Assembly: GCA_051294905.1 (NCBI GenBank)
Contig: CM119371.1
Location: 10,480,001-10,544,000, forward strand
Reading direction: 5' to 3'
Source: Botryllus schlosseri
Taxonomy: Eukaryota
DNA: 64,000 nucleotides
A program made the position numbers and the translations under genes. This document shows positions 7,223-58,553 of the stretch, one piece after another (the stretch's first letter is position 1; each line of letters begins with the position of its first letter). The notes beneath the pieces are model-generated. The model saw only the letters and a list, made by a program, of their open reading frames with translations, was not told where the DNA came from and made no database searches.

Positions 7223-7398
7223 GTACATAAGTTGACTTCCCCCGTGACCGATGCTGTTATGACGTATGCGTGAATAATCCTCGTTTGTATACTCGAATAT
7301 ACTCAAATCACTCCAGCGCCCGGTTTTGCCCAGTGCCAACTATTCCCACAGTCGTAATATTCTCTATATTCAAAGTTTATTATAATCCTATCGTAGCA

Positions 7399-26168: not shown

Positions 26169-27026
26169 ATGTCTGCTCCATCGAAAGTATTACTGGAAGA
26201 TGCCTTCAACACGAAGAAAACGGTGGAAAATTACATTCAAAAGAGACCGCGTGCATTAGTACATATTCCGGTTCGGCTTATCATTGAGCGGCTCAAGCAA
26301 TTAGGGAAAGTAGATCAATCGTCCAGATGCCTACTTGATGTGGGGTGTGGCAGTGGCGAATCAACCAGATTGTTGGCGAAAAACTTTCACCATACGATCG
26401 GAGTAGACCCGAGCGCCCCCATGATTTCGTACGCCATCTCTTTCGATAATGAAATTTCAGACATTGAGTTTAAAGTTGCAACTGCGGAAAAACTGCCTAT
26501 TGAAGACAGTTCTGTCGACGTTATTACAGCCATGTTTGTTGTACACTACGCCGACCTCGAAAAGTTCATTCCCGAATGCAAACGAGTGCTGAAACCAAAC
26601 GGCGTGGCACTGTTTTACCGGCATCAGATATCAAAAATACTGTCGGCTGAAAATGACGCTCTACCCGTAATAGATGGGCCGGTAAAATGATGATTCGACA
26701 GCTTTTGAGAAAAGGCGAGACAAATGTCGCACCCGAGCTTTCACACATATGAGCTCCACCAAACGCAATTTGACTCAATCAACTGGGAAAAGAAAAGCAG
26801 AGAGATAAATGAGCTGGAATTTGCGCCTGATTCCCAATGGACTCTTGGCTCATGGTCTCGCTTCTATCATAACCTTCCGTTCTATCAAAAAGCGGGTAAA
26901 AACGGCGTGAATCCAGTTACTGAACTCGTGCAAGCTGTGAAAAATACCTGGTCAATGCAGGATAGGGATTCCGACGACATCAAAATTAGAGTGGTGTACA
27001 CGACGGCGATGATTATTTTGGAATAG
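26169..27026 (+). pseudogene. SAM-dependent methyltransferase copy 2, with a -1/+1 frameshift pair giving in-frame TGA stops (pseudogene or sequence error)
   Basis: Same 858-nt length as copy 1 and highly similar protein. One base lost near 26684 and one gained near 26708 give AAA TGA TGA TTC GAC AGC TTT TGA. Confidence 0.85.
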
Positions 27027-29561: not shown

Positions 29562-31401
29562 ATAGCTAGTTCCAAATATTTTGTGCAAAATAACCCTAGC
29601 CAACGTGACGGGAGTATTTTAACGAAGTATGGCCATCTAACAATATGACCGATTAATTTGGGATGAATTATAATAAACCACTACATTCTTGGAAACAAGT
29701 TGCAAACATTGTCGGCGCATGTTTCGCGCGTAGCGCAACGGAAAGTTCCGAGATTTGACTGATTTTTCGTGAAAAAGACAGCAGCCGCAACTGGTGGTTC
29801 GGCATCCTTCTATCTGTTGATTACATCGCATTGTACATTGTGCGTGTCTTGTTCAGATGAAACTATAATCTGACGTTTATTAATATTGATTTCTCAGGTA
29901 TTTATGAAACTTCATGCTATTCGAAATCATGAGCGCCATCTGGCCATAGCTCGGAAAGTTGTGGAGAAAATCGACACAAAATAGAACTGCGCCAGAATCG
30001 AAAACAAGCATAGCTGATGTGTGATGCGGCGAGATTTTAATTATATAACATTTGAAATATTCTACGTTGTTAGGTTTTATATCCTAATTCTATTCGATAA
30101 TGTGATGAAGTATATTATGGAGTAAACGTTTAAACAACCACCGAGTTTCATGGCGAAATCAGATCTATCTTCTATCTATCTTAGAATCTATCTTAATCGC
30201 AAATCATTACGGCTTCTGGATAATAGATAGATGTTTACAACCAGTTTTCCTGGTCTCAATTTTGCCTTCGAGAACATGCATTCGATGCAGGTCAGATGCG
30301 CGATGTTTACTATTTCTCAATGATACGCGTGAAAACTGCAATCATACTAAACATGGTCATGATTCTATGTTCGCTATTAACTTAGATAAGTTGGAGCAAG
30401 CCAGAACAGATCTTGGCTGGACTTGGATATGAGACGTAGTCGTATTCGGGTTAGTATACACGGAAATCATATATGTATTACGAAATGGCAGCAATAAAAT
30501 GATAACATATTTTAATTGGGCTAGTGCTTGACCAGTTGATACAATATCGACTGCATGCCGTAGTAGGTACGGGCATTGATTAGAACCCATGTACCGCATA
30601 TATATATATTGAAATAAAATTGGATAAAACAACCATTGCTAACTAGAAGCACGCTTGTCTACTATAAAATATTACACTTGTTTAGCATCTTGTAAATATG
30701 ACCAAAGAAACAGAATAGCCATAAAAAGGCACAACAAAAAGGGAGTCGGAAACAAGACACCGATCGCGGAGCAGAGATTATTCATCAAGACACGCACGCA
30801 AGCTGTGCTAAATATTATGAACGCAGCTCCACTTACTGTTAGAATGCAGTACGATTTTAAGCGAATGGAACTGGTCAAGTGGGCAGTTGCAGTTATTCCC
30901 GATCCGCGGTGTTTCAGACAGATCCTCAACGCAGAACGGGTGGATGTTACCGTCAGATACGACACATAAACACCAGCGATGTTGTTATAATGGAAGCTAG
31001 CTACTGAACCAGTGAAGGCTAGGATCAAGAGTGAAGAAACGCAAATTATTGTCCGTCTCGGTTTAGAATATCGATCAAGAATTTGACCAACTATAGGTCC
31101 CGCAGCAGTTTCTGTTACGATTCCAATGATAAAAAGCAACCCCACAAATTGATCATTCAAATAGGGGAATTGTTTCAAAATCAAAGAAGATATAAGGGTG
31201 GCGCCGTACGCTCTGTCAGACATCGCGAATGCGTACAGTATAACAAATATCGCGTATGGGCGATAAGTGAATAGAAATGCCACATCTTTCAGCTCTCTTT
31301 TCATGCTGTAAGTCGGTGATGTCTGCACCAAGGGAGTTTTCTCGTTTAGTGCTTGATCATTAGGTAATTCGCCATGTTCGCAAACAGGCGGCTTGTTAGA
31401 C

Positions 31402-33356
31402 CAGAGTGTACTCAAAGGTGGTGTGGACACAGAAAGAAATTCTCTCGTTCACGCTTCGCTTGGGTTGTCAAGATTGTTATTTTCGATCCGTTTTCAGTAC
31501 TGACTCAGTGCAAAAGTCGGTATTGGTATATGTCGATTTTGACGATGTTTCATATTGATTTGGGTGACAAGTTTTCGTATGGTATATCTGGATGATGTAA
31601 TCTAATACTGTACCAAGTTTCAAGGTCTTCACTTTATGATTAGGGCAGTAATTGCGTTACCGAAGTCAAGTATGCTATTGTCGATCCGTCTGAAACAGTG
31701 ATTTGACGTAAACGTAGGTATCGGTATGTGTTGATTTTGACGATGTTTTATACCGAGATGGGTCCCAAGATTTGGTATGGTATATCTTGACGATATCATG
31801 ATATCATGGAACACTGTACCAAGTTTCAAGTTTCTCACTCATGATTAGGGTGGTAATTGCCTTATTCAAATCGACTAAGTATAAGTGTGCGCGGCCTACG
31901 CATTGCCGATTTTACGCAAAACTGGCTATTGATATGTTTTGATTTTGAAGGTATTCTATACGTAGTTGGCATACAAGATTTCGTATGATATATCTTTATA
32001 TTATATCAGCTAATAATGTACCAAGATTAAAGTCTTTCACTCATTGATTAGGGTAGTAATTGCCTTACCGAATTCGACAATGCCTAGATGAGAGTCAGAC
32101 TGAAACTAGGCTACCGCATAACAGATTTTACGCAAAAGTCGCTATTGATATGTGTTAATTTTGACGGTGTTCTATACGTATTTGGGAGACAAGATTTCGT
32201 ATGGTTTACCTTCATTATGTCAGCTAACGATGTACCAAGTTTCAAGGCTATCACGCATTAGGGTATAGGGTAGTAATTGTCTTATCCGAATCGACTATGT
32301 ATAAAGGTGTGCGCTAAACTAAAATTAGGCTACCACATAGCAGATTTTACGCAAAAGTCGCTATTGATGTGTGTTGATTTTGACAGTGTTCTATACGGAG
32401 TTGGGAAACAAGATTTCGCGTGGTATATCTTGATTATATCAGCTAACGTGTCAATTTTCAAGGCTGCATTTAACGATTAGGGAAGTAATTTCGTTAGCGA
32501 TGAGTACACCCCAATCCTTGAGTTACAACCCTAAAACTTGAATCAGTGTTGGATGACATCATGAAGATATACCATGCGGACAAATGGACACCGGCCAGTG
32601 CCGGCTTTTGCGTAAATTCTGTTATGCGGTAGGCTAGATTCGAGAGGCCAGACGCTGCAGCTGCAGGTCTCTACATAAACGGTCGACTTCGATAACGAAA
32701 TTACTGCCCTAATCATGAAGTGAGGACCTTGAAACTTGGTACAGTATTAGATCACATCATCCAAATATACCATACGAAAACTTGTCACCCATATCAATAC
32801 GAAACATCGTCAAAATCGACATATAATAATACCAACTTTTGCACTGAGTCAGTACTGAAAACGGATCGAAAATAACAATCTTGACTACCCAAGTGAAGCG
32901 TGAACGAGAGAATTTCTTTCTGTGTCCACACCAGAGATTAGCGGATTTGGAATTTCTATGTCCTAATCCAATCCAAATCCGAACCTTCAAATCCAAATCC
33001 TAATCCATAACTTTTTCATATTCAAGTCCATGTCCAATCCTAATCCGATTCCAACTGGAAATTCAGAAAAAATACTAATTTATGCAATGGAGGGATTCGA
33101 AAATTTTCTTTCACAACCAACAATTCAATTGATTCAAGATAACTTAGTAACCATAAGTACATTAATAACTGATCTGAATAAAGTTTGTCGCCATTCGCCA
33201 CACGACATTTCAATCTCCCAGAAAATAGGTAAATCCGATCCAAATCCTAATCCGTTCTGAAAAAAATGTCTAATCCAAATCCGACAAAATTTCACAAATC
33301 CTGTTTTTTCAAAACCTAATCCTAATCCATGCTCATCTCTGGTCCACACCACTCTG
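31402..33356. mobile_element. Foldback-type non-autonomous DNA transposon, 7-bp TSD (P-superfamily-like)
   Basis: Ends CAGAGTG...CACTCTG; TSD GTTAGAC (31395-31401, 33357-33363); ~250-bp inverted terminal regions; internal ~200-215-bp tandem units (TGTACCAAGTTTCAAG...GATTAGGG.AGTAATTG). Confidence 0.75.
32932..33341. mobile_element. CAGAGATGAGC/ATCCAAATCC-family hAT-type MITE (410 bp)
   Basis: TIR CAGAGATTAGC...GCTCATCTCTG; perfect 8-bp TSD GTCCACAC. Near-identical inverted copy at 51013-51439. Confidence 0.9.
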
Positions 33357-36300
33357 GTTAGACACAAAGCATATTACCAAAACGCAACAAAGTAACGACA
33401 TTACCGACAATGAGCCGAATGTCGAAGCGAATACAATTCTAAATCTGCGATCAATAATTTCGGAAGTTGTTGAGAATATCGATATTTGCTGAAGCTCATA
33501 ATGGCTATACCTCATCCCCATTGCTCTCGTAGCAACCAAGTTAGACATCAAAGATGCTAGCCGCCTTGTAGTCGATGACATTGCTGTCGCTTTTCCTCTC
33601 TCATGCAAATGAAACCAATTCACGGACACTAGCTGTGCTATCGCTATTATAACTCCGGCAGCGGAGCCGGATAGAAACATCCCAGCAACTAAGAGTCCAA
33701 ATATTCTTAACAAAACTCCCATTGTAACCAGTAGAGTGGCGAATCCATTTAAGACGCAAGCTAGCAACGTGATTTGCCGAAGGCTGATCCAACCACCGAT
33801 CACGCAAATCACCACAACGCTTGAAAGTCTACCGACGAGATTGGCGATTGCTTGCAAGTCAGTCATGGCTGGATTGATTCTGAAATATCTCGACGTGATA
33901 TCGTTGACAAATGAGAAGGATCCGAAACCGAAGACATCCAATACTGTGATCAAACACACTATCAATGAAATGACCCATCTTTTCCCCACGACTCGGTGTC
34001 TTTTCCCGTCCAACAGGAACGTCTTGTTGGTTTCGGAATCACGATCACTATCTTTAGACTTCATAGCAAACACTACACCTGATGTCACTCACTCGGTTCA
34101 GTTTCAAATAATTTTCCTCAACGGCCAATGAATGTAGCAAACGAAATGTCCTATACCAAGCTACGCCAACGATGGCTTGAGCAATACGCACGAGTGGGAT
34201 CATTCGTGCCGAGACGGAAGGAAACAGGAAGAGCCGACACTATGAATATTGATTGCTGTGAAATTGGCCGATGATAGCGTAGCGATGAGCGTATGTGCCA
34301 TCTACGCAGGTTGCCCGTGTTCAAGTCCTGCCTTCTCAAGTCCCTCTGGACTTCTCGTCCCCGTGACTGCAGTTCCAACGGCTACGAAAAAGGTCAGGAA
34401 AAAAGATCCGATGAAGAAAGAGAGAAAAGAGCATTAAATAATGTATAAATTCACATACCAAGATAGATTACAATCGAAATGACTGTAACATCGGGCACCA
34501 GTCCGATGTGGGTGCTAGATTAGGAAACTACAACTTGGTCGTTTCGGAATCCTCCTATATGTTCATTGCATCGCATTATGTCTTGTCCATCGCATTGAAC
34601 ATTGTGAGTAGTCCTATGTGTCTTTGGCAGATGAAAATATAATCCGGCAATGACACTGGTCAATTTCGAAAAAAATTGCGCTAAAAATTTAATGCTTGAC
34701 TTAGGCTAATTTAAGGTTGCCAAATCCGATTCAGTGCTCAGAATTTCTCTATCGGCACGTCAGATTGTTTTCTAGATGAATTTCTCTCATTTTCATAAAT
34801 AAATCAGATTTCGGCTTTCGTTAGTGACATAACAGTAAGCATACAACAGCAACAGATCGAATGTTGTTATTGAAATCATCTATCAAGAAATGTTAGTTGT
34901 TGTAGTACAGAATGAGTGAGTGTTCGGTGAACTTGAATCCAATGATTCTTCATCTTCGTTCAATCAGAAGCTCTTATCGACCCATAAAATCGCACCGGTC
35001 AACAAATTTCAGAAATAAAATTGCACCAAGAGTTTTAATGATTAGGCTAATTTTAGGTTGCTGAATCCGATTCTGCCGTCAGAATTTTTCTAGCACGTCA
35101 AATTTTTTCGGTATGTATTTTGTTATTTTCATAAATTAATCAAATTTCGGTTTTCGTTAGTGACATCACGGTCAGCGTACAACAGCAATAGATCAAATAT
35201 TGTTATTGAGATCATCTATAATTATGAAACCCGGGTTGTTGTAGAACAAAATAACTGAGTTTTCGCTGAACTTGAATCCAGTGGTTCTCTATCTTCTTTC
35301 GCTCAGGACCTCTTTTCGGCCCATAAATTCATATGAGGATACAAATATTTTTAGTCGGTAGCAGTTATCATCTTTATATGCTACTCTTCTTATAAAGATT
35401 TCGATTAGTAACTCCGTACCTAATTTAGTTCCATACGTTATCTATCTTTATACATCCGTTCTGCAGATTTAATCGGTCAATGCATGTTGTGACAGCACAC
35501 CATTCTTTCGTAAAACGTAAAAATTTGCAAACAATAAACATTGTGTTGTTGGTATATTATGTAGAAGAGAATTGTTCACTCGCGTACATGACGCTTTAAG
35601 CTTGTGCTGAAACAATAAAAGAAACAGGCTGTCTGCTTTTCGAAAAAAAAAGTGCTTTTCATGATAACTTGAAAGAATTTATAAGCATTAATCTCCACCT
35701 GTACTTATCATGCTAATTCTTTTAACATTTTATTGGAATCGGGTAAAGCTGTTACTGAACTGTTTTTCTTTTGGTGTATTGCCATGATATAAAGGGCTTC
35801 TTTTGCATTGTCTATTATAGATAACCAGATGAATAGAGACTGCTTACTAACAGCTCAAACGAAACCTGATATGCGTGATACTTCACAATAGAAATAACTA
35901 TGCTTCGGTTCTAGGACAGTCGATCGCTCTCGACATAGGACATTCTATGGCCGACACTCAATAACACGTGTTCTATTCTGTAATAGAGCCAGAGATTAGC
36001 ATTGGTTAGCATCGAGGCTTTTTGTTAGTGTTTTGCATGATTAAACGTCAGATCTTAATACAAAAGGGGGGTTCCTGATTTGGGGGTTCCTGATTTGCCG
36101 TAACATTTTACTATGAGCTAGAGTTGGTTGAAGTGATCAGCGTTGCTACTCAAGTAACATAAGTAACGCCTATCATTTCTACTCAATTACAAGTAGAATT
36201 AGTCATTTCTAAGACATGTTAAAACTACTTCAAGTAGAAGATGAAATGGAAGGTCTGATAATAACTGAAAGTCAGTAAATATATAAGTATATATTGGTCT

Positions 36301-39300
36301 GGGGAGGGTGGTCGTATACCTTCAAAACGTAGTGGAGGTGGCTGCATACGAAATTGCAAGATGCATCGCTGCATATAACGCAAAATGACTTTAATGATAC
36401 CACTCATTGGTAGAACCTTCGAAAACAATATATTCAGTTACCGTTATTCAGAGGCTATTTTACACGTTTCGTATGACAATTTACCTCATGATAGTGGTGC
36501 AATATTATCCTTGAATTACTTTCTACTTTACAAAAATCAAATTGCAAAAGTAATTAGTTCATTCAGAATACTGTTCAGGTAGAAGTTGAAGTAGTTGTAA
36601 AACATTAACACTTCAGTAAGTACTGCAAGTAGCCAAAATCTACTTGAGTACCTTAAAAAAGTAGAAATATTCAACATAAATAATATCCCAAACACGCGAC
36701 GTGATGGAACAAATATGACGTCAGATTCGTATTCAGCGACCCCAAATTAGGTATAATTCACCCAAAGAAGTCCTGGCGCAAGTAGTTAGTATGATCGGTC
36801 GCGAACTAGCGTTGTCTCTTATGGGTGCACCCGACCGGTGCCGCGAAAACTCGTCCTGAACCGGTGACCCTTTCAGACCCCCCTTCCACCCGACCGGTGC
36901 CTTATGAGTATAGGGATCTCTCGACCGGTGCCTCGAAACTCGTCTTGAACCGGTGACCCTTTTCGGTATAGGGATCACTCAACCGGTGCTAGTATAGCCA
37001 TCTCTCGACCGGTAACCCTTTTCGGTATAGGGATCACTCGACCGGTGCCGCGAAAACTTGTCTAGAACGGGTGACCCTTTTCGGTATATGCATCTCTCGA
37101 CCGGTGTTGAATATGTATCAAGTAAATAGTCATGTGACTGAATCTTTGTTAATGTGTATATCGTGAAAACTCGTGGTCGTGACTCGCCTTTTTTACTATA
37201 GGTGGTGGCGGTGATTCGCCTGCCGTGTATTCTTACGGGATCTGTGGTGACTCGCCATGTGTTTTTATGGGTGCGGTCGCATGCGGCTATTGTGTCTTAT
37301 GGGTGCGGCCGTGAATCGCCCTTTCGGTATAGGGATCGCTCACACGGTTCTACATGAAGACATCGTAGTTTAGTCGTGACAAATGACCGATCGTGTGACC
37401 AATTTGAAGTAATCCCAACGTTACGGCGAGTGCGACAATGATATATCGTTATTCTTATGGGTGCGGCGGTGATTCGTACTTTCGGGTATAGGCTGCGGGC
37501 GGAATGTCGTACTTTCAATAAAAAAGGCGTGAAAATAGTTTGCAAAATCTAGGAATTACTCGCATGGTAATGTTTGGGTAATTAGATTACCACAGAGCCG
37601 GCGTAGACGGCGATTCGAATATCAACAATAACAACGGTCACAAATTAACACTTCAAATAGGTGTGAAATAGTTTGCAAAACCACGCGATCGCTGACAAGA
37701 TATTGTCTCGGACATAACCATCTTTAGCGACTTGGTGTTACAGGCATATCGATCACTCACGCGGTGAAATTTTCGTAAGCAGTTTGGCACAGAACTTGAT
37801 TTCACTCGTAAGATTTAATAAGTAACGAATAACAGACCGCCAGTGTCGGTAACTTGAATAGCGACAAATTGTCACTTATTTCCGCTCTAACCCTAATCCT
37901 TTGTGAAGTGAACGCTTATTCAAAAAGGTGTGAAATAATTTTAAAATCCAACGACCACTCACCGGATAATGCTTCAGACATAGCGATCGCTCATGATTTG
38001 GTGTTACAGACATACCGATCGTTCACAAGGTAATATTTCCGCAATAAGTTTGTCACAGAGCCGTCGCAGACGGTGATTCGAAAACCAACAATTTGACACT
38101 TTCTGGAAGTCGCTATATGTTTTGGCACTTCGGAACAGTGAGTGACTTTAGTTGTATGATAAGAATCATGAAAATATTCAAGCAATGTATCAATTTGTCA
38201 ACTTGAAATGTAACTTACTACACAACTCAAGTTGATTCTTATCTGAATGTGTTAATTTGGCACAACTCTAATTCTTTTGAGAAATCCTAATAACGCGATC
38301 TGTTGAATCGAACGTAACCTGAATATTACTGACGCCGACTTTCAGCCACATCAAATTATTTGCACATTCCGAGTCGCTGTTTCACGCATATAGAATCAAT
38401 ACCAACTAGCTCAATGAGAATCAGGAATCACAAGTATACACACACAATAATTATATTTAATACTGAGAAATCAAACGCTTAACAAAAACACGCAACTAAT
38501 CATTTACCAACTCTAGCATTACCAAAAAAAATTCAGGCATTGTTAATTGAAAATCCTTGAATCCTTATTATCAAAAAATGTTATAGTGCGGTGTCGGAGT
38601 CCATTCGCGGGGTGTACTAAAGGTAAATCCAAATAATCCAGAATGAAATATTTGGACTTTGACATTGCGTGAATTGAAATATGTTGGACAAACATGACTA
38701 CCAATTTTCACCCAGTCACATTTCGAGATTATACGCACATTGATTTGAAACAAGTAATGAAACATTACAACTCTATTCGCGACCTGTCTTTACGTTTGTC
38801 AAAGAGAATTTCAGTAATTACTATCGCGATATTTTAATGTGTTACTACTCACAATAGAATCAATCAATGAAATATCGCCAATTGTTGTAAACATTTCCAA
38901 CTTGACAACCGCTTGCACATAACACGATCGAGTTGCAATGCGATGAGTTGAATCGGAATATTTCAACCTACTTTGTCATATCGCGATTTGAAGTAGGATT
39001 GCCAGACAGGCTGGGTAAACTTTAACTCCACTGCGTTTCAGATTAATTTATTCACACGATCATCATCTCGCTGTCTTCACACTTACACAATCGCGTGCTG
39101 TTACCACTCGCAACTTCGGTACGATATTTCAACTTGTCACAATAACTGATTATTCACATGTTGATTTGAAACAAAAGAAGCCTTGAACAAGTTATCTGGG
39201 TATTTTTTTGTCACAATTGAGTTAATGGAAATAGTATTACACCTCGAAATTTTAACATCTCACCATACTCAAAAGAGTCAATCATAAAGACCTTGTCAAG

Positions 39301-40929
39301 TAAATCCGTTTGTAACTTGGCCATCCAACTAGACAGTACCCGTACAGAAAGAAGACAAGATTACGCGAGTACATACAATCGCTACAATCTAAAATCCATA
39401 GCAAGTTCGGTTGTAGTCATAGTCCGCCAACTCGTATTTTTTGTTCAACTGTAAAAGTCGTTACTATTCTGTAAGATAAAGTAATTACTACTCGGTATAT
39501 TTTATAAACCAAAGTAAGTACTACTCGGTGTGAGGTTTCAGATTAACATATTACATTTGAGTATACGAGATTTGAATGTCTGACCAACGTAGTTGAGAAT
39601 TCTTACAATCGAACGCAGGTGTTATATTGAAAATTTTCACGATGTAAACATATGAATTGACACATTGATTTTGACATATGAGATTTTGTAATAGTCGATC
39701 ATGACTTGATTATTAAATTATGACATTATTAGACCTGCGTTGTGTTGAAGGTTATTACGATACCAACAAACTTTTCAGAAACATTGTTATTAACATATCG
39801 ATTTGTGAAACTAGATTAACATGTCTGAAATGTTTTGATTGGTAAGATTAAGCCGTGTTCGTAAAAACCACACAGCGTATTGTGGATATCAAGAAATATT
39901 TTACAAATGTAATTGTCTCCAGTAACCAAGACTAAAGATGAAACAACAATTTCCTTTGTTGAACAATAACCGGTACAATACTTTATCATCGTAATCTGCG
40001 GTGAGAATTGAAACACTTTCGCACATTACCCGGTGTCAAGATATCACACTGGGTGAATTGACATACCGCCGCTTGATTAATACCTAATCCGTTCGCACCA
40101 TTTCACCTACTTTGATCATTACAAAAGTAAATTGGAATATGTTTGCTAGATGCATTCAATTCAGTTAGAAATGTCTGGTGCACAACAATCGTAATATCAA
40201 GGAAGTACTTGCTACACTGTAATTCACTTAACATGTTTTGCATTGTTGTTCATTTGTAGTATTGATTGAAATTGTTTTTGAACCCCCAAATATTAATTCC
40301 CGACATGAAACCAAGCCACTGAAAGTCGTTACCATCACAACGAAACAATTTGTACGATGTTTGCCAAAATGTATCCTATAGTTAGGTGTACTAGAATTAT
40401 TTGTCTAACACATACACCGACAATGCAATCGAAAATTTTTCCGTTGTCATTCGCTAAAGTAAATGTCATCACAATACTCTGTCACTGAAAGACGTTACTT
40501 GTATGTGATTGAATCCCTAACAATAAACCCACTAAACCGAACTCCAAATAAATTTGACTCACTCGACGGATATGAAACAGCGTCGCTTAATCGGTCTATA
40601 TCGTTTTTCTAAAGGTAAATCATATCCAATAGAAAACAATTTTCACAAGCTTGGTAATGAAACCGAAGTCTTTATTCAATATTTTGTTTGTGTCAAATAC
40701 TTTGCAATAAACACACTGGAGTGGTTGAGCTTTACATCATCAGACTGTCATCTGTAAATCAAGCTTACATCCGATTTGTAACTGTATTGTTTACCTAACC
40801 GAGTTGTATGCACAGTTTGATATTTTTGTCATTCAGGGAGTGCAAATCCTTTTCACACTCGTAATAGTATACCAACAGCTACCGGCGACAACGTTTAACA
40901 ATACCAACAACACTAAACATACGATACCT

Positions 40930-41580
40930 ACCCAAGTAAAATTACCATTTCCACCTGGAGGTCAACCGTTACCTGAGTAAAAATACCATTGTCCTTTGGA
41001 GATTTATCGTTTACTCAGAGTAACAATACATTTCACTTGGGGGTCTATCGTTTCCCTGGGTAACAAACCTTTTTCACTTGGAAATATATTTTTTCTCTGG
41101 GTAACAAACCTTTTTCACTTGGAAATATATTTTTTTCCCTGATCAACAAACCATTTTCACTTGGAAATATATTTTTTACCACAGCAACAAACCATTTTCA
41201 CTTGGAAATATATTTTTTCCCTGAGCAACAAACCATTTTCACTTGGCGGTCCGTCGTTTACCTGAGTAAAAACATCACTTTCCTTTGGAGATCTATCGTT
41301 TATCCGGAGTAACAATACATTTTCACTTTGGGTTCTATCCTTTCCTAGAGTAACAAAACCCTTGTCGTTTGCAAATCTATTTTCTCCTACAACAACAAAC
41401 CATTTTCACTTGGAAAAATACTTTTACCTAGAGTAACTAATCATTTTCTTTCGGAAATATATTTTCTCTTGGGTAACAAACCCTTTTCGTTTGGAAAACT
41501 ATCATTTACCTGAGTACCAATACTGTTTTCACTTGGAAATCTTTTTTTTTCCTGGGTAACAATAGCATTTTCGTTTTGAA
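40930..41580. repeat. ~40-bp minisatellite in the left arm (mirror at ~44040-44690)
   Basis: Recurring unit approximately AACAAACCATTTTCACTTGGAAATATATTTTTTCCCTGAG, roughly 15 diverged copies. Confidence 0.85.
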
Positions 41581-41686
41581 AACTGACAACCACACCGGAA
41601 AATTTGATATTTTTGTATATTGTTACAACGGGCAGTGACAAAATATACACCAACAACGACTCCGATACATTTGTCTAATCAAATAT

Positions 41687-41935
41687 TCACTGGCTCTGAT
41701 GCATCCCATCAAAATCATTGGTTACTCGCATGCAATAACAATGTGCTGTTGTACATCGACATGTATGTTTTCGGAATTGGCGAATAAAGGGGTTTTCGAT
41801 ATGACCGTGATGTCCGGGTTCGTGCTTTGGATTTTCCAGAGTCAAAATGTCTGAATAAAACACCTCCTCGACTTTGGTAACTGGTTGGTACACGGATAAT
41901 GATGTTCGGAAAACGGATGAAATTATGTTCCCCAT
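41687..41935 (-). CDS. Hypothetical 82-aa protein, left-arm copy (MGNxxS start, Cys/His-rich C-terminus)
   Basis: ATG-initiated; differs from the right-arm copy at one residue (L/S). Confidence 0.4.
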   Translation of the reverse strand: MGNIISSVFRTSLSVYQPVTKVEEVFYSDILTLENPKHEPGHHGHIENPFIRQFRKHTCRCTTAHCYCMRVTNDFDGMHQSQ

Positions 41936-42974
41936 CGCGCGAACAACTACGGGTTACTTGCGGGTTTCCTCAGGTCTGTTTACTATATTGTGTCTTTACT
42001 GGGCAATACATATCGCTCCAGTCAGCTGAAACCGGATACCTAATATGAGAAAGTGTGTGGGCCGGATATTCACTCATGAACCAACGACCAATATTCAAGT
42101 AAACATGTTACAGACCGTGTTTTGTCTCCATGAAAAATACCAATGCATACACCATCACATCAAGTACGTCACGATTGTTCATACATACCAAGTATTCGCG
42201 TAAACGAGGTGTACATACAATGTGTCGGTGTACAAACATCATGGAAAACAAATTCATGTTCTCAAGTCTCATCATGCGACGACTCTGTACATTCAATGTG
42301 GGCAGAGATGACTTGGAGACAGGCAAGCAGCCATATTTGGACGTAACACGGTCTTAGTATGAACCGACCTCCACCCAACTTGTGAAAAATGAATCTCACA
42401 TGAGTACAGCCCTTTCACGGGTTCACACCTTGATTTTGCAAGATTGTTCAGATTCTCAGGTAGACTTACATCGTGATCCAGAGCTCAACATATAGTAAAA
42501 TCGGGTTGCCTAGTTCAATTACTCACCCAATCCTCGCGTATTCTTGGTCATAACCTGTGAACTTTTTTGCTGAGACCACAGTGATTCACCTGGTTTAATG
42601 TATTTGGCGATCATCATCGTTATCAATCTTTCACGCGATGAGTATGTCGGATGTCGCTACTCCCACATAACGACTTCAGCTAAACATCGTGAGCAGTGAC
42701 TCCGGATTGAAATCGTAAACGGAGATTATGTGTATGTGTGAATCTCGAGTTCAATCACGATTTGATAATGTAATCCAAGGTGTGTCTCTGCGGGTTGAAG
42801 ACTGATTTCGTGTTAACCTCTCCGCAAGAGGGTGCTGTCTCGTAATTCTACATGTCGTTATAAAACACGGTTGGAAACTTTTGTTCTAGTTGATCCAGCT
42901 ACGTATTGAAACGGTTCACCCACGCAGACCACTGAGAAAACGTTGTCGTTACCTGACTATATCCACGAGTAAAT

Positions 42975-43250
42975 ATGGGACTACGCGTAACGTTCCATAG
43001 ATTCCTCTGGCCCCACACCGTGGTTTTACGACACAGACAAGATGCAGCGGTGGAAATATTGAAAATGAAAAACGATACCTTGGTGACATTTGATTTGGAT
43101 TTTACACCTGATGAACCATACACTCGATTGGTACATTGGGATGACAACTCTATCGTCGAGGTCGAGGGAAAAGAAATGTACAGATTTGTTGGTGTTGTGG
43201 CTATTCAGCGAAAATCAGGGTATATGGTTGTGTATGGTTCGCATATTTGA
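42975..43250 (+). CDS. Hypothetical 91-aa protein in the unique spacer of the palindrome
   Basis: ATG in a TAAATATG context with TATAAAA ~115 bp upstream; globular-protein-like composition; no family recognised. Confidence 0.45.
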   Translation: MGLRVTFHRFLWPHTVVLRHRQDAAVEILKMKNDTLVTFDLDFTPDEPYTRLVHWDDNSIVEVEGKEMYRFVGVVAIQRKSGYMVVYGSHI

Positions 43251-43266
43251 CTGAGAATATATCGGT

Positions 43267-43506
43267 ATGCATAATGCACTGTCCATTGTATCATGTCGTG
43301 TGTCATCTCTGCCCACATTGAATGTACAGAGTCGTCGCATGATGAGACTTGAGAACATGAATTTGTTTTCCATGATGTTTGTACACCGACACATTGTATG
43401 TACACCTCGTTTACGCGAATACTTGGTATGTATGAACAATCGTGACGTACTTGATGTGATGGTGTATGCATTGGTATTTTTCATGGAGACAAAACACGGT
43501 CTGTAA
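43267..43506 (+). CDS. Hypothetical 79-aa ORF crossing the spacer/right-arm boundary
   Basis: ATG 16 bp after the previous stop. The left-arm mirror lacks this ATG and N-terminus. Confidence 0.3.
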   Translation: MHNALSIVSCRVSSLPTLNVQSRRMMRLENMNLFSMMFVHRHIVCTPRLREYLVCMNNRDVLDVMVYALVFFMETKHGL

Positions 43507-43678
43507 CATGTTTACTTGAATATTGGTCGTTGGTTCATGAGTGAATATACGGCCCACACACTTTCTCATATTAGGTATCCGGTTTCAGCTGACTGGAGCG
43601 ATATGTATTGCCCGGTAAAGACACAATATAGTAAACAGACCTGAGGAAACCCGCAAGTAACCCGGAGTTGTTCGCGCG

Positions 43679-43927
43679 ATGGGGAACATAATTTCATCCG
43701 TTTTCCGAACATCATTATCCGTGTACCAACCAGTTACCAAAGTCGAGGAGGTGTTTTATTCAGACATTTCGACTCTGGAAAATCCAAAGCACGAACCCGG
43801 ACATCACGGTCATATCGAAAACCCCTTTATTCGCCAATTCCGAAAACATACATGTCGATGTACAACAGCACATTGTTATTGCATGCGAGTAACCAATGAT
43901 TTTGATGGGATGCATCAGAGCCAGTGA
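43679..43927 (+). CDS. Hypothetical 82-aa protein, right-arm copy
   Basis: MGNIISS... with HGH and HTCRCTTAHCYC clusters; co-oriented with the two upstream small ORFs. Confidence 0.4.
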   Translation: MGNIISSVFRTSLSVYQPVTKVEEVFYSDISTLENPKHEPGHHGHIENPFIRQFRKHTCRCTTAHCYCMRVTNDFDGMHQSQ

Positions 43928-46268
43928 ATATTTGATTAGACAAATGTATCGGAGTCGTTGTTGGTGTATATTTTGTCACTGCCCGTTGTAACGATATACA
44001 AAAATATCAAATTGTCCGGTGTGGTTGTCAGTTTTCAAAACGAAAATGATATTGTTACCTAGGAAAAAAAAAAAGATTTCCAAGTGAAAACAGTATTGAT
44101 ACTCAGGTAAATGATAGTTTTCCAAACGAAAAGGGTTTGTTACCCAAGAGAAAATATATTTCCAAAAGAAAATCATTAGTTACTCTAGGTAAAAGTATTT
44201 TTCCAAGTGAAAATGGTTTGTTGTTGTAGGAGAAAATAGATTTGCAAACGACAAGAGTTTTGTTACTCTAGGAAAGGATAGAACCCAAAGTGAAAATGTA
44301 TTGTTACTCTGGATAAACGATAGATCTCCAAAGGAAAGTGATGTTTTTACTCAGGTAAACGACGGACCGCCAAGTGAAAATGGTTTGTTGCTCAGGGAAA
44401 AAATATATTTCCAAGTGAAAATGGTTTGTTGCTGAGGTAAAAAATATATTTCCAAGTGAAAATGGTTTGTTGATCAGGGAAAAAAATATATTTCCAAGTG
44501 AAAAAGGTTTGTTACCCAGAGAAAAAATATATTTCCAAGTGAAAAAGGTTTGTTACCCAGGGAAACGATAGACCCCCAAGTGAAATGTATTGTTACTCTG
44601 AGTAAACAATAAATCTCCAAAGGACAATGGTATTTTTACTCAGGTAACGGTTGACCTCCAGGTGGAAATGGTAATTTTACTTGGGTAGGTATCGTATGTT
44701 TAGTGTTGTTGGTATTGTTAAACGTTGTCGCCGGTAGCTGTTGGTATACTATTACGAGTGTGAAAAGGATTTGCACTCCCTGAATGACAAAAATATCAAA
44801 CTGTGCATACAACTCGGTTAGGTAAACAATACAGTTACAAATCAGATGTAAGCTTGATTTACAGATGACAGTCTGATGATGTAAAGCTCAACCACTCCAG
44901 TGTGTTTATTGCAAAGTATTTGACACAAACAAAATATTGAATAAAGACTTCGGTTTCATTACCAAGCTTGTGAAAATTGTTTTCTATTGGATATGATCTA
45001 CCTTTAGAAAAACGATATAGACCGATTAAGCGACGCTGTTTCATATCCGTCGAGTGAGTCAAATTTATTTGGAGTTCGGTTTAGTGGGTTTATTGTTAGG
45101 GATTCAATCACATACAAGTAACGTCTTTTAGTGACAGAGTATTGTGATGACATTTACTTTAGCGAATGACAACGGAAAAATTTTCGATTGCATTGTCGGT
45201 GTATGTGTTAGACAAATAATTCTAGTACACCTAACTATAGGATACATTTTGGCAAACATCGTACAAATTGTTTCAGTGGCTTGGTTTCATGTCGGGAATT
45301 ATTATTTGGGGGTTCAAAAACAATTTCAATCAATACTACAAATGAACAACAATGCAAAACATGTTAAGTGAATTACAGTGTAGCAAGTACTTCCTTGATA
45401 TTACGATTGTTGTGCACCAGACATTTCTAACTGAATTGAATGCATCTAGCAAACATATTCCAATTTACTTTTGTAATGATCAAAGTAGGTGAAATGGTGC
45501 GAACGGATTAGGTATTAATCAAGCGGCGGTATGTCAATTCACCCAGTGTGATATCTTGACACCGGGTAATGTGCGAAAGTGTTTCAATTCTCACCGCAGA
45601 TTACGATGATAAAGTATTGTACCGGTTATTGTTCAACAAAGGAAATTGTTGTTTCATCTTTAGTCTTGGTTACTGGAGACAATTACATTTGTAAAATATT
45701 TCTTGATATCCACAATACGCTGTGTGGTTTTTACGAACACGGCTTAATCTTACCAATCAAAACATTTCAGACATGTTAATCTAGTTTCACAAATCGATAT
45801 GTTAATAACAATGTTTCTGAAAAGTTTGTTGGTATCGTAATAACCTTCAACACAACGCAGGTCTAATAATGTCATAATTTAATAATCAAGTCATGATCGA
45901 CTATTACAAAATCTCATATGTCAAAATCAATGTGTCAATTCATATGTTTACATCGTGAAAATTTTCAATATAACACCTGCGTTCGATTGTAAGAATTCTC
46001 AACTACGTTGGTCAGACATTCAAATCTCGTATACTCAAATGTAATATGTTAATCTGAAACCTCACACCGAGTAGTACTTACTTTGGTTTATAAAATATAC
46101 CGAGTAGTAATTACTTTATCTTACAGAATAGTAACGACTTTTACAGTTGAACAAAAAATACGAGTTGGCGGACTATGACTACAACCGAACTTGCTATGGA
46201 TTTTAGATTGTAGCGATTGTATGTACTCGCGTAATCTTGTCTTCTTTCTGTACGGGTACTGTCTAGTT

Positions 46269-47464
46269 CAGAGGTCTCAAACACGCGGCCCGCGGGCCGC
46301 ATGTGGCCCGCCAGAGCATTTCGTGCGGCCCGCGAAGACATTTTAGATTTTTAATAATTTGAAAATATTTTAGTGTCACATATATCTTTTCAGGTTATAA
46401 AGTCGAAATCCCCTCTTAAATTGCCTCAAAAGCCTGAACTATTCATCGAACTTCGCTATCACATCAATTGCAAACGCTACCATGCAGTGGAAGATTCAAT
46501 ATTTCGCCACATTTCCAATTCATGATGACGAAACCTGACCCTTAGACGATTCGTGACTAAAATTTGTGAGTTGGACTTGCACGCGACCTTTCTTAGAAAT
46601 ACTCAGACTCGCAAAATGAAAATGACTCGAGTGGACTCGGAGTGACTCGGTATGTCGTGAATTTGTTAGAACCTTGAACGCAACAAACTAATCGCGTATC
46701 GGGAGAATAGCAATGGATCAGAAGGTCGCAGCTTTGTATTTCGCTAACTAAGCAAGTAGTTATAGCAACCGTTGGAAATCTGTCAGTTACATCTTTGGTC
46801 GCTAAACCATGTTACTAAGGCCACGTACAGGTACCGAGTACCGCAGTGGTACGCCCCAAGGATGTAACAACAATGGGCCGTTCGGCGTTCCGACATTTCA
46901 ATCACTAGGACACATTCAATAATATATTTATATTATATTTATATTTGTTTCTGCTCCTATATTTGAAGATATTTGGCCAAGAGATTAATAGCCTACTTAG
47001 CAGAAGTATACCCGAAACCTGGATTGGAATTACAATGCTAAACCTGACAATGTTTTGATATCAGATCAGTCTCTATTATCAATCTGTTAAATTCAAAATA
47101 TTCATAGTACCTGCAAAATTATAACCCGATAACTTTCATGATGGCATCATACATATGTCCGCCCATATGATGTCAATATGTTATAATAAATATATATCAA
47201 GTACAACAACAACTCTATTCAAGTAGTTATAAATGTGATGATTCTTTTCTTGCCAGGCCTAAATTTACACAAGAGTATATCACATTTTGACGATGTGTGT
47301 TTACTGATAGTCTGCTGGATCGGCTCACTTTCAATAGGACAATTAATTCCCGCCAAATAAGGCCTATTCGGAAAGACATAGAATACCCCTATAAATGCTG
47401 CGGCCCGCGGCGTCGTCAAAACGTGAAAACTGGCCCGCAAGCACATTTGAGTTTGAGACCTCTG
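46269..47464. mobile_element. hAT (Charlie-like) MITE present only in the right arm
   Basis: Perfect TIR CAGAGGTCTCAAAC...GTTTGAGACCTCTG; perfect 8-bp TSD GTCTAGTT. The left arm shows the single-copy empty site at ~39327-39334. Confidence 0.93.
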
Positions 47465-50400
47465 GTCTAGTTGGATGGCCAAGTTACAAACGGATTTACT
47501 TGACAAGGTCTTTATGATTGACTCTTTTGAGTATGGTGAGATGTTAAAATTTCGAGGTGTAATACTATTTCCATTAACTCAATTGTGACAAAAAAATACC
47601 CAGATAACTTGTTCAAGGCTTCTTTTGTTTCAAATCAACATGTGAATAATCAGTTATTGTGACAAGTTGAATATCGTACCGAAGTTGCGAGTGGTAACAG
47701 CACGCGATTGTGTAAGTGTGAAGACAGCGAGATGATGATCGTGTGAATAAATTAATCTGAAACGCAGTGGAGTTAAAGTTTACCCAGCCTGTCTGGCAAT
47801 CCTACTTCAAATCGCGATATGACAAAGTAGGTTGAAATATTCCGATTCAACTCATCGCATTGCAACTCGATCGTGTTATGTGCAAGCGGTTGTCAAGTTG
47901 GAAATGTTTACAACAATTGGCGATATTTCATTGATTGATTCTATTGTGAGTAGTAACACATTAAAATATCGCGATAGTAATTACTGAAATTCTCTTTGAC
48001 AAACGTAAAGACAGGTCGCGAATAGAGTTGTAATGTTTCATTACTTGTTTCAAATCAATGTGCGTATAATCTCGAAATGTGACTGGGTGAAAATTGGTAG
48101 TCATGTTTGTCCAACATATTTCAATTCACGCAATGTCAAAGTCCAAATATTTCATTCTGGATTATTTGGATTTACCTTTAGTACACCCCGCGAATGGACT
48201 CCGACACCGCACTATAACATTTTTTGATAATAAGGATTCAAGGATTTTCAATTAACAATGCCTGAATTTTTTTTTGGTAATGCTACAGTTGGTAAATGAT
48301 TAGTTGCGTGTTTTTGTTAAGCGTTTGATTTCTCAGTATTAAATATAATTATTGTGTGTGTATACTTGTGATTCCTGATTCTCATTGAGCTAGTTGGTAT
48401 TGATTCTATATGCGTGAAACAGCGACTCGGAATGTGCGAATAATTTGATGTGGCTGAAAGTCGGCGTCAGTAATATTCAGGTTACGTTCGATTCAACAGA
48501 TCGCGTTATTAGGATTTCTCAAAAGAATTAGAGTTGTGCCAAATTAACACATTCAGATAAGAATCAACTTGAGTTGTGTAGTAAGTTACATTTCAAGTTG
48601 ACAAATTGATACATTGCTTGAATATTTTCATGATTCTTATCATACAACTAAAGTCACTCACTGTTCCGAAGTGCCAAAACATATAGCGACTTCCAGAAAG
48701 TGTCAAATTGTTGGTTTTCGAATCACCGTCTGCGACGGCTCTGTCACAAACTTATTGCGGAAATATTACCTTGTGAACGATCGGTATGTCTGTAACACCA
48801 AATCATGAGCGATCGCTATGTCTGAAGCATTATCCGGTGAGTGGTCGTTGGATTTTAAAATTATTTCACACCTTTTTGAATAAGCGTTCACTTCACAAAG
48901 GATTAGGGTTAGAGCGGAAATAAGTGACAATTTGTCGCTATTCAAGTTACCGACACTGGCGGTCTGTTATTCGTTACTTATTAAATCTTACGAGTGAAAT
49001 CAAGTTCTGTGCCAAACTGCTTACGAAAATTTCACCGCGTGAGTGATCGATATGCCTGTAACACCAAGTCGCTAAAGATGGTTATGTCCGAGACATTATC
49101 TTGTCAGCGATCGCGTGGTTTTGCAAACTATTTCACACCTATTTGAAGTGTTAATTTGTGACCGTTGTTATTGTTGATATTCGAATCGCCGTCTACGCCG
49201 GCTCTGTGGTAATCTAATTACCCAAACATTACCATGCGAGTAATTCCTAGATTTTGCAAACTATTTTCACGCCTTTTTTATTGAAAGTACGACATTCCGC
49301 CCGCAGCCTATACCCGAAAGTACGAATCACCGCCGCACCCATAAGAATAACGATATATCATTGTCGCACTCGCCGTAAACGTTGGGATTACTTCAAATTG
49401 GTCACACGATCGGTCATTTGTCACGACTAAACTACGATGTCTTCATGTAGAACCGTGTGAGCGATCCCTATACCGAAAGGGCGATTCACGGCCGCACCCA
49501 TAAGACACAATAGCCGCATGCGACCGCACCCATAAGACGCAATAGCCGCTCGCCACCCCCGCCATAAGACGCAATAGCCGCATGCGACCGCACCCATAAA
49601 AACACATGGCGAGTCACCACAGATCCCGTAAGAATACACGGCAGGCGAATCACCGCCACCACCTATAGTAAAAAAGGCGAGTCACGACCACGAGTTTTCA
49701 CGATATACACATTAACAAAGATTCATTCACATGACTATTTACTTGATACATATTCAACACCGGTCGAGAGATGCATATACCGAAAAGGGTCACCGGTTCA
49801 AGACGAGTTTTCGCGGCACCGGTCGAGTGATCCCTATACCGAAAAGGGTCACCGGTTCAAGACGAGTTTCGAGGCACCGGTCGAGAGATCCCTATACTCA
49901 TAAGGCACCGGTCGGGTGGAAGGGGGGTCTGAAAGGGTCACCGGTTCAGGACGAGTTTTCGCGGCACCGGTCGGGTGCACCCATAAGAGACAACGCTAGT
50001 TCGCGACCGATCATACTAACTACTGGCGCAAAAATCGTGTAGACCAGTTTGATTTAATTCCTTTTCCGAATTTTCGATTAATATTATTGATAATGCAACT
50101 AATGGTAATAATTGACAGCATGAGAAACATAAGACTCACTGCTATCCGCTATGATTCATTGATTCACCTAAAATCAATATGGTCATGAATCATCAATTGT
50201 GGTGAATATTTTTATGCAGCTTTCGAGGTATACAATTCACTACTATATTCATATTGAACTAAACCGGAATATATTTTGCTGACATTATAGTCACGGGTAA
50301 TCGTCAGCAACTAGTAAAGAATTGGAAAGAACATTGTATATCTACAATCGTATCACAAAATATGACGTCACCAGCATGAAATGAAATCTCGAATAAGAGA

Positions 50401-57890: not shown

Positions 57891-58553
57891 CGAACGAAGA
57901 ACGAGAGAAAAGTGCAAAAAATTATGTCTGCTGTAATGACCGAGGAATACAGTTCAACATCGCCAGACTGTGACATTGGGCACTATGCCGAGGTGGATGC
58001 ATAGATTAAGAGACCAGAACTTATGGTCGTTTCGTTATCCTCCTCGCTGTTCATTGCATTGCATTGTGTCTCGTATATCGCATTGATCACTGTGTATGTG
58101 TCTGCGCAGATGGAAATATAATCCGGCGATGATCGATTATAATGCAACTAATGTTAATAATTGTATGCATGGAAAGCAAAAAACTCACTGCTATTCGCTA
58201 TGATTGATTGATTGATTTACCTTAAATCATTATGTCCAGGAATCATCAATTAAGGTAAGTATTTTTAAACAGCTATCGTAGTATCAGTCGGATGAATCTC
58301 GAAGCATTGCTAGTTGTTTTCCTTGATTTTCATTATGGCTTAGATCATGAGCATTATCTTGGGTAATTGAATGACGGAACCAGCGGTTATTATCCGCTGT
58401 GCAGCGACTGCTCAGGAGTGCAGCGAAAAAAATGAGGTAAAGCTGTTTGCCGTCGACATAAAACAATTATGAAAGGGGTACCACCTATATATATGATGTG
58501 ATATCAAATTCAAATTGGAAGTGTGAAAACAATTTTATAAACAGCCTTGTCCT

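Follow-up and report, generated by a model that had tools for sequence, protein, structure and literature searches.

The window (the whole 64-kb stretch of DNA analyzed) contains a giant palindrome that we read as a single copy of a DNA transposon, both non-autonomous and non-coding, with long terminal inverted repeats (TIRs). Its ends, (AGT)2/(ACT)2, and a 6-bp duplication, GGCGCA, make Maverick (Polinton)-type mobilization about an even bet, although a single copy cannot settle which family moved the element. Under the 6-bp reading of the duplication, the element is 13,244 bp long (36781-50024), and its limits become 36782-50023 or 36782-50022 under 8- or 9-bp readings. Its main parts are the following:

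36781 to 50024, unstranded: whole element, the only copy in the 64-kb window
36781 to 42312, plus strand: left arm, 5,532 bp
42313 to 43301, unstranded: core (spacer), 989 bp
43302 to 50024, minus strand: right arm, 6,723 bp, consisting of 5,519 bp of arm, a nested MITE, and one copy of the MITE duplication

As the preliminary description had proposed, the arms are reverse complements flanking a 989-bp spacer and make up over 90% of the element. A global arm-arm alignment that left out the nested insertion contained 5,451 aligned positions with 27 mismatches (14 transitions and 13 transversions; 99.5% identity) and seven indels, among them tandem-unit differences of 59 and 64 bp. Arms of such length and identity exclude a chance origin. 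The right arm is longer than the left because it carries a nested 1,196-bp insertion:

46269 to 47464, unstranded: nested hAT-like MITE, 1,196 bp, with a perfect 14-bp TIR (CAGAGGTCTCAAAC), in the right arm only
46261 to 46268, unstranded: 8-bp duplication of the nested MITE (GTCTAGTT), with its second copy at 47465 to 47472
39327 to 39334, unstranded: empty left-arm target of the MITE, AACTAGAC (reverse complement of GTCTAGTT)

Elements of the hAT group usually have 8-bp target duplications and short TIRs beginning CAG, and the nested MITE has both. Further nested pieces were suggested by contig joints, for example at 38807-39250, and these had no clear TIR or duplication. The 27 mismatches, the seven indels, and the presence of the MITE with its own duplication in only the right arm indicate that the arms are separate physical copies. 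These differences also bear on whether the palindrome is false, the product of a chimeric fold-back long read or of a haplotype joined wrongly, which we consider very improbable. Palindromes are a known artifact of long-read libraries, and none of the listed contigs from public runs bridged either arm/core junction under a rule of 31 letters on each side; the best junction contig among those listed (X12 record 24) extended 30 letters into the right arm with two differences. However, a mirror artifact would not yield arms that differ by substitutions, indels, and a full MITE opposite an empty site, and the flanks of the element, which carry a direct repeat, are not mirror images of each other. 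Because the left and right flanks differ in sequence and carry this repeat, the element appears to have been inserted as a unit. A search of the window for a paralogous empty site found none, only one 158-bp repeat in the right flank.

The evidence on the family that moved the element lies first in its ends:

36781 to 36980, plus strand: perfect TIR, left copy, 200 nt, starting with (AGT)2 and pairing with 49825 to 50024
49825 to 50024, minus strand: perfect TIR, right copy, ending with (ACT)2
36773 to 36781, unstranded: 9-bp direct repeat CTGGCGCAA, left copy, an in-register extension of the 6-bp core GGCGCA at 36775 to 36780
50023 to 50031, unstranded: 9-bp direct repeat CTGGCGCAA, right copy, an in-register extension of the 6-bp core at 50025 to 50030

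The element starts with AGTAGTTAG and ends with CTAACTACT, and GGCGCA flanks it on both sides. The terminal 18-mer occurred in the window solely at the two ends of the element (0.05 matches expected), and an exact search for the terminal 22-mer returned no matches in either viral_contigs or metagenome_contigs. The terminal hexamers, AGTAGT and ACTACT, are exactly 5'-(AGT)2//(ACT)2-3', one of the two Maverick end motifs (the other being (AG)3//(CT)3) and, with perfect 6-bp duplications, the commonest end form in the accessible text of a survey of vertebrate Mavericks (PMC8097293), which bears out the earlier claim of Polinton-type ends. The observed/expected CpG ratio of the window is ~1.1, which is not vertebrate-like; since the motif source covers vertebrates, this suggestion of a non-vertebrate window weakens the Maverick reading. 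The inverted ends (200 nt perfect; 5.5-kb arms at 99.5% identity) are also far longer than those published, as TIRs measured 46 to 1,447 bp among 134 intact vertebrate Mavericks (PMC8097293) and are given elsewhere as 100 to 1,500 bp for Polintons, with duplications of 5 to 8 bp (PMC10748475). That the arms are ~3.8 times as long as the longest TIR reported in the accessible text of PMC8097293 further weakens a Maverick assignment.

The direct repeat had been described as a perfect 6-bp repeat, GGCGCA. This sequence does flank the element on each side, yet the perfect repeat extends to the 9-bp CTGGCGCAA, which overlaps the element ends by 3 nt at bases that are also paired within the inverted ends, so that the duplication can be read as 6, 8, or 9 bp. 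The Maverick reading is weakened by the 6-bp duplication needing three flank bases to match the end bases of the element; we estimate such chance flank agreement at ~1/64 for both the 6-bp and the 9-bp readings and ~1/4 for the 8-bp reading. [quoted passage not shown] The true duplication might then be CTGGCGCAA (9 bp) or TGGCGCAA (8 bp), the element would start (G)TAGTTAG, and its likeness to (AGT)2 would be coincidental, a set of conditions to which we give a chance somewhat short of even. Mutator and Foldback elements have 9-bp (8- to 10-bp) duplications, and the in-register direct repeat here is perfect over 9 bp, although under a 9-bp reading the register of the two ends differs by one base. 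An unrelated family would also have to begin with GTAGT by chance, which we put at ~1 in 1,000, and together with duplicated bases C/T...A it would have to mimic the Maverick motif exactly, an agreement that by our estimate, before priors, is ~200 times less likely than under the Maverick reading.

The internal structure of the ends bears on the same question. Both arms contain composite tandem repeats:

36810 to 37485, plus strand: left subterminal composite repeat domain, with 59-bp units (36908-37106), 32- to 33-bp units (37231-37327 and 37453-37485), five copies of CGACCGGTG, and nine of ACCGGT
49492 to 49897, minus strand: mirror subterminal repeat domain, right, which lacks one 59-bp unit of the left domain and has an extra 64 bp (two 32-bp units)
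40972 to 41572, plus strand: 41-bp tandem array of ~14.5 units, left arm
44066 to 44644, minus strand: mirror 41-bp tandem array, right arm

Five copies of CGACCGGTG lie at each end of the element and none elsewhere in the window, and 17 of the 30 ACCGGT sites in the window fall within the two ends; both repeats are candidate binding sites for the mobilizing enzyme. Tandem sub-repeat ends with unequal unit numbers (here in 59-, 32-, and 41-bp arrays) are a hallmark of Foldback-like elements (PMC3169594) and thus weaken the Maverick reading. Tm1 of root-knot nematodes, Drosophila FB, and Galileo share with the present element long composite TIRs, unequal repeats, mostly non-coding copies, length variants, and a 9-bp repeat, and Galileo is also described with long, internally repetitive TIRs; for Tm1/Foldback, 9-bp duplications and even asymmetric outermost motifs are on record (PMC3169594). 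Unlike these elements, the one described here has end hexamers that are the Maverick motif, and no Mutator/Phantom, P, or other transposase was linked to its ends.

A Pfam scan (E up to 1) of 80 ORFs of at least 45 aa from one arm, the core, and the nested insertion gave no match at or above gathering score and no pPolB, rve integrase, ATPase, protease, capsid, or transposase domain, in agreement with the earlier statement that Polinton genes are absent. The lack of coding capacity fits a Foldback-like element, and the absence of any Maverick gene remnant from these 80 ORFs and from 55 flanking ORFs also scanned weakens the Maverick reading. The sole integrase domain in the window belongs to a BEL/Pao element at 59184-63998. 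One flank encodes a methyltransferase whose relatives are bacterial look-alike clusters and two at 38 to 39%. An Rfam scan of the whole window gave no matches. The preliminary description had also stated that no ORF exceeds ~100 aa; stop-to-stop frames in fact reach 119 aa, and among the 39 that are at least 70 aa long, 5 are longer than 100 aa. One ORF in the core is a candidate cargo gene:

42975 to 43250, plus strand: 91-aa ORF (stop included), in the core

Relatives of this ORF, likewise 91 aa long, formed three protein clusters at 98, 76, and 70% identity; their alignment has no gaps, and 57 of its 91 columns are invariant. The ORF matched no Pfam family, its AlphaFold2 model (mean pLDDT 33) had no confident fold, and the best score in a comparison with the atlas was 0.77, below lead level. 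A profile of the ORF found nothing in viral_contigs and three weak loci in metagenome_contigs, which we rejected, as the match at L003 was just the short scan pattern and those at L001 and L002 were equally short.

Contigs from public runs, of which 122,296 were placed, revealed that all sections of the arms are repeated in the species far above the flanks. In run X1, word depth was 36,174 to 379,143 in the arms versus 3,865 to 4,683 in the flanks, with depth domains along the arm differing ~ten-fold; the core is also repeated genome-wide at a depth below that of the arms. With regard to expression, none of the listed runs is annotated as RNA, and X10, which may be an RNA run, covers flank, arms, and core alike. 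The cargo is thus common host repeat DNA and not private sequence, which weakens the earlier impression that the family and its cargo are undescribed. This very high copy number and the many internal length variants implied by 276 reported joints favor a Foldback-like element, and an arm copy number more usual for cut-and-paste families weakens the Maverick reading. Shorter relatives with the same tip also occur: in contigs of runs X1 and X5 (two each), the match begins precisely at 36781, continues for 24 letters, and then jumps to 37452, indicating that the tip is shared at other loci. We considered loose-end hot spots at 37421, 39600/39602, and 41872 as mosaic breakpoints, but local comparison identified them as the same sequence in diverged or indel-bearing form and not as rearrangements; two of the hot-spot loose-end strings are absent from the window. 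Considering all of these results, the satellite-like Polinton proposed at the outset stands as a non-coding unit insertion with inverted ends and a direct repeat, but the 6-bp target duplication is just one of three readings, and a Foldback/Mutator-like element fits the composite ends equally well.

If the element was moved by Maverick-type machinery, a retrovirus-like integrase from an autonomous Maverick elsewhere in the genome may have acted in trans, recognizing the ends together with the subterminal CGACCGGTG/ACCGGT repeats and joining the ends to a target cut with a 6-bp stagger. Arms of 5.5 kb would be an extreme expansion of the TIR, for which we suggest one of two routes: protein-primed replication starting at the ends could have switched strands (snap-back or panhandle repair) and so copied one end back around the 1-kb core, or gene conversion could have homogenized the two ends inward. 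The arms carry common host repeat DNA instead of Maverick genes and, after insertion, gained the 27 substitutions, a few repeat-unit indels, and the hAT-like MITE. Alternatively, an element of ordinary form, its ends a few hundred base pairs long, may have inserted and its arms grown afterward, as repair or gene conversion copied one side inward. This order of events fits either family, and we regard it as unlikely, though still worth weighing. The arm interior (37421-39334 and its partner) is 100% identical over long blocks compared to 92 to 98% in ungapped blocks of the subterminal repeat zone, as growth after insertion predicts, and the ~ten-fold differences between depth domains would be expected of a repeat patchwork. 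However, the lower identity at the ends is largely repeat-unit slippage, as just 4 of the 27 mismatches fall before 37421. Furthermore, the contigs carrying relatives of the 91-aa ORF (965 to 2,005 nt) are about the size of a repeat-bounded 1-kb core in a short-word assembly, which hints weakly that arm-core-arm is the usual form of the family. Inspection of the two core junctions found neither microhomology nor an imperfect palindrome.

Defective genomes with giant inverted repeats are known from protein-primed systems, including incomplete adenovirus particles and hairpin derivatives of yeast linear plasmids. They share the arm-loop-arm layout, as from a strand switch in end-initiated replication, but they are free replicons, whereas the present element is chromosomal and its replication mode is inferred. 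A more speculative extension, which we consider rather improbable, is that such elements are "snap-back" Maverick satellites: palindromic, gene-poor replicons that keep only the viral ends, are integrated by a helper integrase, and conserve the 91-aa loop ORF. With every round of end-initiated replication they would regenerate one arm from the other, and this would account for 5.5-kb arms that are nearly identical.

Maverick/Polinton elements of animals are treated by Barreat and Katzourakis (2021; PMC8097293) and, as cited by others, by Kapitonov and Jurka (2006). The likeness to that group lies in the (AGT)2//(ACT)2 motif, the TIRs, and a repeat readable as a perfect 6-bp duplication (PMC8097293). 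Mavericks differ in having pPolB, integrase, ATPase, protease, and capsid genes, none of which is present here, and their TIRs of at most 1,447 bp in the accessible text of PMC8097293 contrast with 5.5-kb arms, a high-copy host-repeat interior, and a 9-bp direct repeat. Butterfly polintons are reported with ~2-kb TIRs that duplicate genes, polB-less derivatives that are seemingly still active, and transposons as cargo (bioRxiv 10.1101/2025.02.07.637071). The present element shares TIRs far beyond a short end, the lack of a polymerase, and internal transposon DNA, but butterfly TIRs hold capsid and protease genes and form a minority of the element, whereas the arms here are gene-free and exceed 90% of it. 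The preliminary description had also mentioned a long-TIR non-autonomous Polinton from zebrafish; a zebrafish Repbase family, Polinton-1N1_DR, is indeed in print (PMC9341505), where the accessible text gives only the name. Judging by that name it is a non-autonomous Polinton, and its host is a vertebrate, unlike the CpG signature of the window. Within the library of papers searched for non-autonomous or palindromic Polintons, we found no giant-palindrome derivative, only the name Polinton-1N1_DR, a remark on Tlr1, and the butterfly preprint.

If the element is Foldback-like, it belongs to a known kind and is not unusual within it, and it serves as a warning that Maverick ends plus a 6-bp duplication can be mimicked when duplicated bases extend an inverted repeat. 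Giant palindromes of this type are fragile sites that may also act as a source of double-stranded RNA, and were the element a snap-back satellite, a read-through locus would yield 5.5 kb of double-stranded RNA directed at a repeat family of very high abundance. If the Maverick reading is true, the element is a virus-like transposon stripped to its ends, with inverted repeats that occupy >90% of its length and are several times longer than in the surveys compared. Maverick integrases would then be shown capable of dispersing gene-free passengers to high copy number, and end-initiated replication of generating giant palindromes within animal chromosomes.

The element spans 13,244 bp (36781-50024) and consists of two arms, built from inverted-repeat blocks, on either side of a core.

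Features of the element
36781-42312, left arm, inverted-repeat blocks
36908-37106, 59-bp units, left end
37231-37327 and 37453-37485, 32-33-bp units, left end
39327-39334, empty site of the nested insertion, single copy, left arm
42313-43301, core between the arms, 989 bp
42975-43250, + strand, core ORF, 91 aa
43302-50024, right arm, inverted-repeat blocks
46261-46268 and 47465-47472, 8-bp duplication GTCTAGTT of the nested insertion
46269-47464, nested insertion in the right arm, 1,196 bp, with perfect 14-bp inverted ends CAGAGGTCTCAAAC

The arms are tiled by nine ungapped inverted-repeat blocks, each 192-1,220 nt long and 92-100% complementary. A BLAST comparison of the element with the window likewise recovered the arm-core-arm layout and detected nothing else in the window similar to the element. 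When the left arm was aligned globally to the reverse-complemented right arm minus its nested insertion, the two were 99.5% identical, differing by 27 mismatches over 5,451 aligned positions (14 transitions and 13 transversions) and by seven indels, including tandem-repeat-number changes of 59 bp and 64 bp and a 21-bp deletion. Complementarity is perfect across the outermost 200 nt of both element ends, the terminal 18-mer occurs twice in the window, at the element ends only, and no microhomology was found at the arm/core junctions. These blocks, the BLAST comparison, and the arm alignment bear out, with corrections, the giant palindrome seen in a preliminary description made from the sequence alone.

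The right arm exceeds the left by 1,204 bp and harbors the nested insertion, which is a hAT-like MITE. One arm of the palindrome preserves the filled MITE site (right) and the other the empty site (left), so a hAT-type transposase acted after arm formation. A mirror artifact of assembly is very unlikely, being contradicted by the MITE in one arm, the 27 substitutions, and the unmirrored flanks; the arms are two physical copies. Near-identical, they have since slightly diverged and gained the MITE.

The preliminary description had reported an element without Polinton genes, and this held when 80 frames of at least 45 aa were compared with Pfam, accepting E-values up to 1; the frames came from the core, the nested insertion, and one of the two arms. 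None reached the gathering score, the best E-value (0.0072) belonged to an irrelevant family, and no polymerase, integrase, protease, ATPase, capsid protein, or transposase was found among these frames. Its accompanying statement that no ORF exceeds about 100 aa was incorrect, as 5 of the 39 frames of at least 70 aa surpass 100 aa, the longest stop-to-stop frame overlapping the element region reaching 119 aa. Rfam gave zero matches across the whole window.

The 91-aa core ORF had one true relative among 1.84 billion protein representatives, also 91 aa and 76% identical; a second match was to repetitive sequence and was rejected as due to chance. In 90% clusters we found three relatives (98, 76, and 70% identical), all 91 aa and without gaps, with 57 of 91 columns invariant. 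The relatives total six sequences carried by contigs of 965-2,005 nt, a biased sample in that gene callers record just the copies still open. This conservation suggests a genuine small gene, but we are cautious because of that bias, because no Pfam family matched, and because the predicted fold has a mean pLDDT of 33, i.e., no confident structure. We therefore regard the core ORF as a candidate cargo gene of unassigned role. The contig sizes approximate a 1-kb core bounded on both sides by repeats, which hints weakly at arm-core-arm as the usual layout of the family.

Part of the stretch is contained in 20 of the 24 public sequencing runs listed, from 11 studies, the best holding 0.65 of the sampled words. 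We compared contigs from four of these runs with the core and with a single arm and flank; matching contigs numbered 122,296 in X1, 10,356 in X5, 1,655 in X12 (labeled as another organism), and 2,049 in X10. Summed word depth in X1, which, coming from contigs, gives no exact copy number and says nothing of expression or strand, was 36,174-379,143 over the arm (37065-42377), 17,516-68,443 over the core, and 3,865-4,683 in the three bins of the left flank. Throughout its length the arm is repeated many times over in this species (90-99% likeness), as are, less strongly, the core and even the flank. The cargo of the element is common repeat DNA. Along the arm, depth changes in steps of roughly 10-fold, as would fit either an arm pieced together from different repeat families or the existence of numerous deletion derivatives. 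There were 276 joints indicating length variants, 15 of them itemized; in one (two contigs each from X1 and X5), exactly 24 letters from 36781 are followed by 37452, and this joint is a shorter relative elsewhere in the genome with the tip in common. None of the contigs listed from the four runs bridged an arm/core junction by the rule applied, which asks for 31 letters on both sides, the nearest being X12 record 24, with 30 right-arm letters and 2 differences. The left flank (35800-36780) is itself repeated in the species, with a summed X1 depth of about 4,000 where exact single pieces reach 12-14, and the element therefore probably lies within another repeat.

The surroundings were scanned with 55 of the 68 frames of at least 85 aa outside the element, the 13 omitted frames overlapping the BEL/Pao frame.

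Features surrounding the element
7231-8253, + strand, class I SAM-dependent methyltransferase gene (Methyltransf_11, E 9e-26)
26133-26687, + strand, second methyltransferase copy (Methyltransf_11, E 8e-25)
30675-34088, - strand, MFS-transporter-like gene, two large exons
55366-57953, - strand, second MFS-transporter-like copy, two large exons
59184-63998, - strand, BEL/Pao retrotransposon polyprotein, open frame of 1,605 aa cut off by the window end

The element lies between the MFS-transporter-like copies and downstream of both methyltransferase genes, the second of which has a shorter frame (185 aa); these paired copies look like a segmental duplication. The BEL/Pao frame matched Peptidase_A17 (E 1e-42), an integrase zinc finger, RT, and DUF5641, in a region with a G+C content of about 0.50 versus about 0.40 elsewhere. 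A repeat of about 150 bp has three copies in the window at 79-82% identity (19706-19863, 50074-50231, and 58139-58284), one of them (50074-50231) immediately to the right of the palindrome.

The element starts with AGTAGTTAGTATG and ends with CATACTAACTACT, and the outer 700 bp of each arm have a composite structure, with repeat-unit numbers unequal between the ends. CGACCGGTG occurs five times per end and nowhere else in the window; of the 30 ACCGGT sites in the window, 17 fall within the two ends. GGCGCA flanks the element on either side, as the preliminary description had noted in proposing a 6-bp target duplication, but the perfect repeat extends in register to the 9-bp CTGGCGCAA (36773-36781 and 50023-50031). 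This allows three readings, all symmetric or nearly so. Read as 6 bp, the repeat leaves ends of AGTAGT...ACTACT; read as 8 bp (TGGCGCAA), it leaves GTAGTT...AACTAC; and read as 9 bp, it places the element ends out of register by one base. An empty allele cannot separate these readings because the ambiguous bases are identical in all three.

The commonest vertebrate Maverick end motif is given as 5'-(AGT)2//(ACT)2-3' with perfect 6-bp duplications, and TIRs of 134 intact vertebrate Mavericks as 46 to 1,447 bp (PMC8097293); Polintons are described elsewhere as 13-25 kb long, bounded by 100-1,500-bp TIRs and 5-8-bp duplications (PMC10748475). A report on butterfly polintons describes TIRs of about 2 kb that duplicate capsid and protease genes, transposons as cargo, and polB-less derivatives that seemingly stayed active (bioRxiv 10.1101/2025.02.07.637071). 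The mention of a non-autonomous zebrafish Polinton in the preliminary description finds a basis in the name of a zebrafish family, Polinton-1N1_DR, in PMC9341505. The CpG observed/expected ratio, ~1.06-1.29 in every measured part of the window (~1.1 throughout), does not look like that of a vertebrate, so the vertebrate motif is used here by extension. The lack of any sign of CpG depletion also suggests that germline methylation of this region is not heavy in this animal.

The account of Foldback-like Tm1 in PMC3169594, with composite tandem-unit TIRs, unequal unit numbers per end, mostly non-coding copies, and 9-bp duplications, fits the ends of the element equally well. The prior, moreover, favors such families, because gene-free elements that are long, full of repeats, and high in copy number belong much more commonly to Foldback, MULE, or similar families than to Maverick derivatives. 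Every reading requires chance agreement between flank and end bases, at a cost of about 1/64 if the duplication is 6 or 9 bp and about 1/4 if it is 8 bp. The 8-bp reading would additionally need the Maverick motif to be completed by chance through the duplicated bases, and a non-Maverick family would further need a chance GTAGT start (about 1 in 1,000). In a Maverick, the motif is expected. We estimate that these considerations favor Maverick ends over either rival by about 200 to 1 before the prior. Because the prior favors Foldback, MULE, or similar, we nevertheless give Maverick-type ends only about an even chance, and hold the Foldback/MULE-like or other 8-9-bp family to be a possible reading of less than even probability.

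The element is a gene-free unit inserted with inverted ends, and its subterminal repeated motifs are confined to those ends. An enzyme supplied in trans may bind these motifs and insert the unit at a staggered cut; in our preferred reading, this enzyme would be a Maverick integrase with a 6-bp stagger. The arms may represent extreme TIR expansion, either through strand switching or panhandle repair as the element underwent protein-primed replication from its ends, for which the behavior of defective adenovirus and linear-plasmid genomes offers a parallel, or through gene conversion between one end and the other.

The element is a long-TIR non-autonomous transposon rather than a new kind of element, and its unusual feature is that the arms make up more than 90% of its length. 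The preliminary interpretation as a defective Polinton is partly supported. Maverick-type ends are most likely, as a provisional family assignment.
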